From: a plasmid
DNA length: 2,257 nt
Assembly (NCBI RefSeq): GCF_056746865.1
Contig: NZ_JBWKMP010000010.1
Reading direction: 5' to 3' (one strand)
In this document: positions 838-1,420 of the stretch, one piece after another
Numbering within the stretch: position 1 is the first letter of the stretch
Layout: each line of letters opens with the position of its first letter
The notes under the pieces: generated by a model
What the model saw: the letters and a program-made list of their open reading frames with translations, nothing else
Database searches by the model: none
Told to the model about the DNA's origin: nothing
Made by a program: the position numbers and the translations under genes

Positions 838-845
838 GCCTGCCG

Positions 846-850
846 CTCCC
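846..850 (-). promoter_or_regulatory. Shine-Dalgarno (GGGAG) for rep, 8 nt upstream of the ATG
   Basis: Minus strand reads ctaGGGAGcggcaggcATG; purine-rich core with 8-nt spacing. Confidence 0.6.
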
Positions 851-872
851 TAGTGCGCGACAGGCGAAATTA

Positions 873-889
873 CGTGTTATCATTCCAAT
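873..889. repeat. Direct repeat copy 1 (CGTGTTATCATTCCAAT), iteron-like, upstream of rep
   Basis: 15 of 17 positions identical to the copy at 903-919; exactly 30 bp apart. Confidence 0.7.
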
Positions 890-902
890 ATCACCTGTAT
901 AT

Positions 903-919
903 CGAGTTATCAATCCAAT
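903..919. repeat. Direct repeat copy 2 (CGAGTTATCAATCCAAT), iteron-like, upstream of rep
   Basis: 15 of 17 positions identical to the copy at 873-889; minus-strand reading ATTGGATTGATAACTCG contains TTGATAA. Confidence 0.7.
907..913 (-). promoter_or_regulatory. Candidate rolling-circle nick-site motif TTGATAA (resembles the CTTG|ATA core of pC194/pUB110/phiX174 origins)
   Basis: Minus strand (the rep coding strand) reads GGATTGATAACTCGATATAC, about 70 nt upstream of the rep start and inside a direct repeat. Match to the consensus is partial (A instead of C before TTGATA). Confidence 0.3.
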
Positions 920-935
920 TTCTCAGGTGGTCATC

Positions 936-974
936 CCCCCGAACGACGCCCATCGTTGCGGGGGTTTATTTTTT
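936..974 (+). terminator. GC-rich hairpin plus T-run (intrinsic-terminator-like) on the + strand, antisense to the rep leader
   Basis: Stem 936-946 pairs with 953-964 (11 bp, one bulged G at 958, six G:C pairs at the base), loop cgccca (947-952), then TTTATTTTTT (965-974). No T-run follows it on the minus strand. Confidence 0.45.
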
Positions 975-1420
975 GACCGCTAAAACCAAAATACACTCAA
1001 AACCATTTCGGAGCAAATTGCCGTTCAGCCCAGTCCTGACAAGGTCTAGAGGCAAATTTGAATCCCAGAGTTATCCCTTAAGTATAAATACAAGGATCGC
1101 GCGCGAGATTTGCTCAAATTTCGAGCTATTTTTTTAGCCCCCCAAAGCCACACATCCCACCCACTTACACCCATCTCATCCACAGACTTTCACCCCGAAT
1201 TTGTGAACAACAAAAACAGCCTCACAGGTGGTTGGCCTCACTCCGTGACACCAACCACCACCACCAGTATCTTCCCCGTGCCATCGTCAATCACAAAATC
1301 GGAACCCACGCCGGAGGCGCGGGACCCCGCGATTTTCTGTTTGACGAGTTCGGGAACGGTGAGCGGGACGCGGAATTTTTTCGCGTGCCGTGAGGCGTTG
1401 GCGGGGTGTCGGGGCGAAGC

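Follow-up and report, generated by a model that had tools for sequence, protein, structure and literature searches.

The window (the whole stretch of DNA analysed, 2,257 bp) is a complete small circular enterobacterial plasmid of the Col(MP18)/ColpVC type. Several E. coli and Salmonella plasmids of exactly 2,257 bp align to it end to end at about 95%, and its relatives are typed by PLSDB as Col(MP18) or ColpVC. The sole convincing gene of the plasmid is rep, which lies on the minus strand with its ATG at 837. Its first 279 codons occupy positions 837 to 1, and the last 50 codons and the stop continue over the circular junction from 2257 to 2105, which gives a protein of 329 amino acids. Rep matches the Pfam family Rep_1 (PF01446) with an E value of 2.6e-85 over 252 of the 253 profile positions, and the motifs HPHFH (HUH motif) and YSTK (catalytic tyrosine) are visible in its translation; NCBIfam gave no match for Rep. 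The profile match and the two motifs identify Rep, by its sequence, as a rolling-circle initiator of the pC194/pUB110 type. A terminator-like site is present on the minus strand at 2077 to 2056, 3′ of the rep stop codon. A 158-amino-acid open reading frame on the plus strand (507 to 983) was rejected as a gene because the length of the region differs among relatives by non-multiples of three and the reading frame is not kept.

Upstream of rep, a nick block, CCTTGTATTTATACTTAAGGGATAAC (1071 to 1108, minus strand), was assigned as the double-strand origin from its conservation and its likeness to that of pC194, and the putative nick would fall within it. The block is 97% identical in the pKYM-like Col(BS512) plasmids, although their Rep is only 67% identical, and it is unchanged in Rep_1 plasmids on contigs labelled Acetobacter, Salinivibrio, Vreelandella, Legionella, and others. 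In a relative whose Rep is 51% identical, the place of the nick block is taken by the canonical CTTGATAC..CTTAGGCATAAC. In pC194 (NC_002013.1), the origin TCTTGATAATAAGGGTAAC is found on the rep-sense strand, upstream of repA by about 200 nt, and it shares with the nick block of the window both CTTG and TAAGGG-TAAC in the same arrangement. The window thus has a CTTGATA-type origin, as in pC194/pUB110-type replicons, upstream of rep and on the rep-sense strand. Directly beside the nick block is another inverted repeat, at the site that the origin repeat occupies in origins of the pC194 type.

Relatives of the control region were gathered in four ways: by BLAST of positions 780 to 1110 against plasmids, an exact-pattern scan of metagenomes, a Rep protein search, and a genome scan for the nick block. 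The BLAST search matched the control region in hundreds of plasmid records, and about 50 relatives of this region (52 variants) formed the comparison set. Several metagenome contigs carry two different control-region variants.

Structure and conservation of the hairpin

The hairpin under study (936 to 964 on the plus strand, termed stem-loop II or SL-II) was defined by folding, covariation, and RNAalifold. Its 5′ arm, CCCCCGAACGA (936 to 946), pairs with TCGTT (953 to 957) and CGGGGG (959 to 964), forming a stem of 11 pairs (8 G:C and 3 A:T) arranged as 6 bp, a bulged G958, and then 5 bp, with a 6-nt loop, CGCCCA (947 to 952). The T-run TTTATTTTTT (965 to 974, with T at 9 of 10 positions) follows directly 3′ of the stem on the plus strand and is the proposed U-tail, within which a plus-strand RNA is predicted to end at about 970 to 973. 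The strong, G:C-rich hairpin of 11 bp with a T-run that the first-pass annotation had reported at 936 to 974 is therefore confirmed, with the addition of the single bulge.

The folding energy of the hairpin alone is −16.8 kcal/mol. Its 61-nt context (925 to 985) folds on the plus strand with −27.6 kcal/mol (z = −3.8; 1 of 200 shuffles was as good), and the fold of the same context on the opposite strand is weaker (−24.4 kcal/mol, z = −2.8). The T-tail score in the window is 4.28 on the plus strand versus 0.33 on the opposite strand. A standard terminator scan did not have the hairpin among its matches because it permits no bulge. With a custom scan that allowed interior loops and required a ΔG of ≤−15 and a T-tail score of ≥4.0, the hairpin with its T-run was the only plus-strand match in the plasmid, and 6 of 150 dinucleotide-preserving shuffles gave any such site on either strand. 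A chance origin of the hairpin and T-run is unlikely. A search of all Rfam families on both strands (E ≤ 10) returned no relevant match.

Among 23 distinct variants, the 11 hairpin pairs were paired in 99.6% of cells, and 5 of them showed compensatory changes on both sides. The observed covariation score was reached by no shuffle, and sliding the partners by one to three columns lowered pairing to 39 to 49%. The bulged G is kept in every variant compared, and RNAalifold recovers the hairpin independently. On this comparison of sequences, the hairpin is a selected structure and not a chance inverted repeat, because of the near-complete pairing, the two-sided changes, and the shuffles that all fell below the observed score.

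The tail after the stem is T-rich on the plus strand only, as seen in the scores of the two strands, and its strength depends on the subtype. The tail score is 4.28 in the subtype of the window and ranges from 2.8 to 4.3 in a subgroup that carries an insertion. The commonest ColpVC relatives have the tail TCGCTTTTAA or UCGCUUUUAA (score of 1.5), and the pPM18 type has CUAAUUUAUA (score of 1.1), both of which are poor terminators. In the pKYM-like clade, the equivalent position is occupied by a covarying GC hairpin that is not followed by a U-run on the antisense strand. The initial description of a “textbook” intrinsic terminator thus suits the stem and the tail score of the window but not the family as a whole, in which the T-run is subtype specific and is poor or absent in relatives. 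In the commonest relatives, a small hairpin of GGUCGC and GCGACC around UUUU was also considered; it was rejected, being broken without compensation in variants.

In the insertion subgroup (L033, L041, L044, L059, L061, L066, and L070 and also L091 and L098), 60 to 100 nt are inserted between the hairpin and a conserved segment beyond the T-run (arm c, described below), and similarity on the plus strand ends right after the T-rich tail (TTTTTCAT, TTTTCTCATTATTTT, and TTTCTCAT). In addition, distant Rep_1 plasmids with the same nick block have an antisense-strand hairpin and U-run at a homologous GGTCAAA(A/G)AAAACCCC site, on contigs labelled Acetobacter, Salinivibrio, and Vreelandella.

The consensus of the predicted plus-strand RNA obtained with RNAalifold contains three columns in which either A or G stands opposite a U. 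The wobble cells, 22 in total, are without exception G·U pairs on the plus strand and would be C·A mismatches on the other strand, with none of the opposite kind; this asymmetry rests on few independent events, which are consistent in direction. As judged from the T-rich tail and the wobble asymmetry, the polarity of the structure favours the plus strand.

Sequence variability is distributed unevenly over the control region. The arms of a second stem-loop (stem-loop I or SL-I), the plus-strand promoter block, and the lower stem of SL-II have column entropies of about 0 to 0.3 bits, and the upper stem of SL-II has 0.65 bits. The loops of SL-I (0.96 bits) and SL-II are the most variable columns, with 0.96 to 1.08 bits. 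Conserved stems with diversifying loops are the pattern expected of the specificity determinants of antisense RNAs, which this analysis suggests the two loops may be.

The candidate rep promoter and the predicted leader

The candidate rep promoter lies on the minus strand at 1016 to 988 and consists of a −35 element TTGCTC (1016 to 1011), a 17-nt spacer, and a −10 element TATTTT (993 to 988). With a rough position weight matrix (PWM), it is the top sigma-70-like site on the whole minus strand of the plasmid. The −10 element is kept as TAT[T/G][T/C/A]T, and ATTTGC around the −35 element is conserved, each in 52 of 52 variants. The predicted transcript start is near 981, beyond the T-run, which together with the rep start codon would define an mRNA leader of about 144 nt (838 to 981, minus strand). 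Since the best conserved minus-strand promoter is located beyond the T-run, the hairpin most likely lies within the predicted rep leader, of which its complement would be the 5′ stem-loop. Another promoter for rep, TTGATA-15-GATATT at 892, between the hairpin and rep, was rejected; its final T is lost in most relatives.

A second hairpin of the leader, formed by GCCUGUCGC and GCGGCAGGC (838 to 865, minus strand), is located directly before the AUG at 837 and encloses the rep ribosome-binding site, with the Shine-Dalgarno sequence AGGGAG at 851 to 846. It is predicted in every variant folded, and its arms differ by subtype and are still complementary. No rep-sense attenuator (a hairpin with a U-run) is visible between 838 and 890. 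A pseudoknot between the loop of the leader hairpin and the ribosome-binding region was rejected, as relatives with different loops have identical ribosome-binding regions; no covariation for such pairing was found among the relatives.

Read in the rep sense, the region begins with the nick block and its adjacent inverted repeat, which are followed by TTGCTC/TATTTT, arm c (981 to 974), the A-run that corresponds to the plus-strand T-run, and the hairpin. Arm a (933 to 924) and a hypervariable stretch (923 to 899) come next, and then arm b with an invariant block (898 to 873), the hairpin enclosing the ribosome-binding site (865 to 838), and the AUG at 837. Arm c, TGACCGCT on the plus strand (974 to 981), can pair with GGTGGTCA (926 to 933) in an outer stem that encloses the hairpin. 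In the insertion subgroup, arms c and a covary, with GGTGATCG/CGATCACC versus GTGGTC/GACCAC. The wobble pairs of this outer stem favour the plus strand in the subtype of the window and the rep-sense strand in others. Because arm c is conserved and yet lies beyond the T-run, another molecule (the rep leader, a read-through RNA, or the DNA itself) would also use this region.

Such features could mean that the hairpin acts solely in the rep mRNA, with no functional countertranscript and an incidental T-run on the plus strand. Closed by the outer stem of c and a, the 5′ stem-loop would then stabilise the leader or set its folding and hence rep translation. With the predicted start at about 981, the leader would open with the outer stem and the hairpin, arm c covaries with arm a, some relatives keep this pairing through G·U only in the rep-sense RNA, and the enclosure of the ribosome-binding site in a conserved hairpin indicates that leader structure clearly matters. 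However, the wobble asymmetry in both stem-loops favours the plus strand, and the antisense-strand T-rich tail recurs in several lineages, even with unrelated flanking DNA. A role in the leader only would also leave the conserved plus-strand extended −10 element described below without explanation, and the high variability of the loops is not expected of a simple stabilising hairpin. This explanation is considered unlikely.

Candidate plus-strand promoter, stem-loop I, and the predicted RNA

The first-pass annotation had suggested looking for a plus-strand promoter between 780 and 935, and a candidate was found there: a conserved extended −10 element, TGTTATCAT (TG-n-TATCAT, 875 to 883), which sits 52 nt before the hairpin stem and has a predicted start at A890. 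This element lacks a good −35 sequence, and it ranks 12th on the plus strand with the rough PWM. All 15 relatives obtained by BLAST carry it unchanged; in the metagenome loci it is necessarily invariant, since these were selected with a pattern that included the block. The pKYM-like plasmids, which were retrieved through their Rep protein and not through this block, have TGGTATATT or TGTTATATT at the homologous place, and therefore the key −10 and upstream TG positions are kept while others change. With this clade included, the element is kept as TGnTAT(C/A)(A/T)T. Two other plus-strand candidates inside rep, TTGTCC-17-CAGATT (788 to 816) and TTCAAA-16-TAAATT (740), score well in the window and were rejected because relatives do not keep them. 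Either of these would make an RNA that overlaps the ribosome-binding site.

Stem-loop I (890 to 931, plus strand) begins at the predicted start of the RNA. Its arms, AUCACCUG (890 to 897) and CAGGUGGU (924 to 931), are invariant or have only G-to-A changes opposite a U, and they enclose a hypervariable loop (898 to 923). The RNAalifold consensus consists of SL-I (890 to 897 with 924 to 931), a spacer of 3 to 4 nt, and SL-II. From A890 to the T-run, the predicted RNA is about 83 nt long (83 to 91 nt among the relatives), and two stem-loops and a tail appear in every variant folded. A consensus of two covarying stem-loops with exposed loops and a terminal T-run corresponds to the architecture of a countertranscript. 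The predicted RNA (890 to 972) does not overlap the Shine-Dalgarno sequence (846 to 851) or the AUG (835 to 837), and it stops 39 nt short of the former.

A simpler function for the site would be that of an insulating terminator, with no dedicated regulatory RNA. Plus-strand transcripts that had crossed rep in antisense, having begun at weak internal promoters or come round the circle, would be halted there, short of the rep promoter and the origin. On the plus strand, the site does directly precede these two elements, and promoter-like sites occur upstream on that strand at 740, 811, and 1268. However, these upstream candidates are not conserved, and SL-I, the extended −10 element at a fixed distance, and the hypervariable loops would be unexplained, so that pure insulation is very improbable.

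The spacing of the elements bears on whether the hairpin belongs to a transcription unit or to the origin. The distance from the promoter to the hairpin is constant among relatives. In the window, 107 bp separate the hairpin from the nick block, with the hairpin on the side towards rep, and the distance from the start of the nick block to the hairpin ranges from 126 to 224 bp among relatives, so the hairpin has no fixed position of the kind sought for an origin hairpin or enhancer. The constant distance to the promoter and the variable distance to the nick block fit a transcription unit that would end at the hairpin, and the latter is at odds with an origin component of fixed spacing. It had been suggested at the outset that the hairpin might be a structural part of the origin beside direct repeats. 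A direct repeat does exist (873 to 892 and 903 to 922, 85% identical), with its first copy in the invariant block and its second copy in the hypervariable loop of SL-I, where it is absent from relatives. Since the second copy is not conserved, the repeats were rejected as iterons or origin repeats, and this suggestion finds no support in the form in which it was made, as the nick region lies at 1071 to 1108 and at a distance that varies.

A looser connection with replication was also weighed, in which the hairpin would act as DNA, in the role of an accessory element to the rolling-circle origin, like the downstream “enhancer” of pKYM. The inverted repeat and its A/T tract would extrude or bend, HU or Rep would bind through the flanking CAGGTGRT, and the element would help the initiation or termination of leading-strand synthesis. 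The 173-bp origin of pKYM is reported (PMC4439123) to consist of a core RepK-binding region and a downstream enhancer recognised by HU, and that source describes the region as an HU-bound origin enhancer and not as an RNA gene. By our own count, 173 bp from the start of the nick block in pKYM-like plasmids ends just past the equivalent hairpin; the location of the pKYM enhancer is deduced from this count. Both clades have an inverted repeat and an A/T tract, in one polarity or the other; covarying copies of CAGGTG(G/A)T lie on the two sides of the hairpin, inverted relative to each other; and the full compensation seen on both sides of the stem suits a DNA cruciform as well as an RNA. However, it is the other inverted repeat that lies directly beside the nick, insertions of 60 to 100 nt are tolerated between the nick block and the hairpin, and neither a strictly conserved bulge nor wobble on one strand only is expected of a cruciform. 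An accessory role at the origin is thus thought improbable.

Slightly more doubtful than this is a dual use of the same DNA, in which the hairpin would be both an RNA terminator and recognition stem-loop and, as DNA, an origin enhancer recognised by HU. Under this model, three CAGGTG(G/A)T segments (c, a, and b) would form mutually exclusive pairings in the rep leader, either c with a or a with b, and the countertranscript would resolve the choice between them. If it were true, a single module of about 110 bp would carry the signals for origin firing and for both the transcription and the translation of rep, and the two hypervariable loops would distinguish many subtypes of the common 2-kb plasmids that are compatible with one another.

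Proposed mechanism and comparison with known systems

With moderate confidence, the hairpin and T-run are interpreted as the intrinsic terminator of a copy-control countertranscript, of which the hairpin would also be the 3′ stem-loop. Termination of a countertranscript had been put forward in the first-pass annotation, and it is the best-supported reading here, given the conserved promoter-like elements and the two-stem-loop shape; against it stand the weak tail in relatives and the lack of overlap with the ribosome-binding site. The proposal builds on the hairpin and its covariation, the promoter-like elements on both strands, and the two-stem-loop consensus, all of which are present in the sequence, and from these it is inferred that either promoter fires, that transcription terminates at the T-run, and that pairing inhibits rep. 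A plus-strand RNA would run from about 890 to about 972, starting from the extended −10 promoter at 875 to 883, and would consist of two stem-loops with hypervariable loops and a U-tail, with termination at the T-run. Its complementarity to the rep leader would be perfect over approximately the first 90 nt of the latter (target, 890 to 972). Pairing of the two RNAs, probably initiated from the complementary loops, would reduce Rep synthesis and so set the copy number and incompatibility. The stop at the T-run would spare the convergent rep promoter, 10 to 20 bp further on, and the origin from the polymerase of the countertranscript. Because the predicted RNA misses the ribosome-binding site, which is itself in its own hairpin, inhibition would be indirect, through altered folding of the leader or cleavage of the duplex, and not through direct occlusion.

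Antisense control of rep in rolling-circle plasmids is textbook knowledge. In pC194 and pUB110, which also have a Rep_1 initiator and an origin upstream of rep on the rep-sense strand (verified here for pC194), antisense RNAs are the reported or predicted control, according to the work of 1988 as summarised in PMC5703833. The window resembles these plasmids in its predicted small RNA against the 5′ region of rep as an inhibitor of copy number. According to the same summary, their RNAs are counter-transcribed in the translation-initiation region of Rep and block translation directly, whereas the predicted RNA of the window is confined to the 5′ part of the leader. The control region showed no sequence similarity to pC194 or pUB110.

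In pMV158, RNAII is made up of a 5′ tail, a terminator hairpin, and a U-tail, with the terminator hairpin as the body of the antisense RNA and with its loop and upper stem among the recognition elements (PMC4485353). Like RNAII, the predicted RNA is a short antisense RNA in which a G+C-rich hairpin with a 3′ poly(U) tail would be the intrinsic terminator. However, RNAII contains one hairpin only, preceded by a single-stranded 5′ tail, and two stem-loops are predicted in the window. In addition, RNAII works with the CopG repressor on the copG-repB intergenic region of a Rep_2 plasmid, whereas the window has no Cop gene and a different Rep family. Overlap with the rep ribosome-binding site is part of the pUB110, pC194, and pMV158 models and is not seen for the predicted RNA of the window.

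RNAI/RNAII of pT181, which act by attenuation, and RNAI of ColE2 target the 5′ leader and not the ribosome-binding site, and their inhibition is indirect. These antisense RNAs have stem-loops and end at a terminator close to the rep promoter. The initiator of pT181 is of the Rep_trans family, and ColE2 is a theta replicon with a primase-type Rep. As in pT181 and ColE2, the target in the window is the 5′ untranslated leader upstream of the ribosome-binding site, and if real, the predicted RNA would belong to this leader-targeting mode. Unlike pT181, the window has no visible rep-sense attenuator from 838 to 890.

pKYM of Shigella sonnei is a studied Gram-negative Rep_1 plasmid. The pKYM-like plasmids, of about 2.1 kb, share with the window the same type of nick block, the inverted repeat, a covarying GC hairpin, and an antisense extended −10 element, and the order of these elements upstream of rep is unchanged. 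The sequence of their hairpin is different, as is their likely rep promoter (TTGACA-17-CAGAAT). In the literature searched, which takes in only a minority of subscription journals, no functional study of control in ColpVC or Gram-negative Rep_1 plasmids was found.

A countertranscript would be an incremental and unsurprising result, since control of this kind is ordinary among plasmids. Plasmids of about 2 kb belonging to the ColpVC, Col(MP18), and Col(BS512) types occur very frequently in E. coli, Salmonella, Klebsiella, and Shigella and are regarded as cryptic; the literature searched contains no description of how their copy number is controlled. If the countertranscript is real, antisense control of Rep_1 replicons would be extended from Gram-positive models to enterobacterial plasmids, with a leader-targeting geometry, and the region would provide a small portable copy-control module for Gram-negative rolling-circle vectors. 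Its two variable loops would also give a rational basis for incompatibility subtypes, and the countertranscript would explain how several such plasmids share one cell.

Control region and rep start

On the minus strand, a 9-bp hairpin at 838-865, with arms GCCUGUCGC and GCGGCAGGC, encloses the Shine-Dalgarno sequence of the initiator gene rep and the bases up to its AUG. Because relatives of the plasmid keep this hairpin over the Shine-Dalgarno sequence despite quite different arm sequences, translation of Rep is probably limited by structure. On the opposite (+) strand, an ORF of 158 aa lies antisense to rep at 507-983, with its stop codon (981-983) just beyond the T-run that follows the putative countertranscript hairpin. 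Its reading frame is not conserved in relatives, and the ORF is therefore probably not a gene.

In a subgroup of nine loci (L033, L041, L044, L059, L061, L066, L070, L091, and L098), an insert of 60 to 100 nt separates the putative countertranscript hairpin from the candidate rep promoter region. The insert holds another small hairpin, e.g., CTTCGGGTGGTTCCGAAG, and a TTGACA motif resembling that of the pKYM-like plasmids, a related clade. Two copies of the control region, belonging to different subtypes, were found on single metagenome contigs at L026, L028, L039, L067, L068, and L072. In all six, the paired copies differ in the loop of stem-loop I and also in the loop or upper stem of the hairpin. 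Either compatible plasmids that were co-resident may have been fused during assembly, or the contigs may be genuine cointegrates.

Replication origin and its occurrence under other genus labels

The nick block of the double-strand origin, CCTTGTATTTATACTTAAGGGATAA (1071-1108, minus strand), also turns up, without any base change, in small contigs that bear the labels Acetobacter, Gluconacetobacter, Salinivibrio, Vreelandella, Legionella, Xenorhabdus, Marinobacter, Rhodosalinus, and even Streptococcus. Some of the small contigs carry clearly different Rep_1 plasmids; others bearing the block are near-identical to enterobacterial plasmid types, and these may reflect either contamination or a very wide spread. 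A second strong hairpin occurs on the minus strand at 1206-1260 (arms 1227-1241 and 1245-1259; dG of about -18) and is followed by TTTTTGTTGTT on that strand, with a further ACAGGTGGT motif at 1224-1232 on the + strand within the same region. The hairpin lies on the would-be displaced strand, approximately 100 to 150 nt upstream of the nick block, and this is the usual place of a single-strand origin.

Inverted repeat and putative oriT

Two 73-nt arms (1412-1484 and 1820-1892), 96% complementary and separated by a spacer of approximately 335 bp, form an inverted repeat. Each arm is palindromic in itself and ends in ...CACATCCTGCCCC. One arm matched 1,844 plasmid records, including 1,659 from conjugative plasmids. 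The matching stretch of an IncK2/Z plasmid is found immediately upstream of its mobA and relaxase genes, at the position of the I-complex (R64-type) oriT. The 2,257-bp plasmid therefore seems to carry two oriT copies in inverted orientation without a relaxase, which would explain why MOB-suite classes its relatives as "mobilizable."
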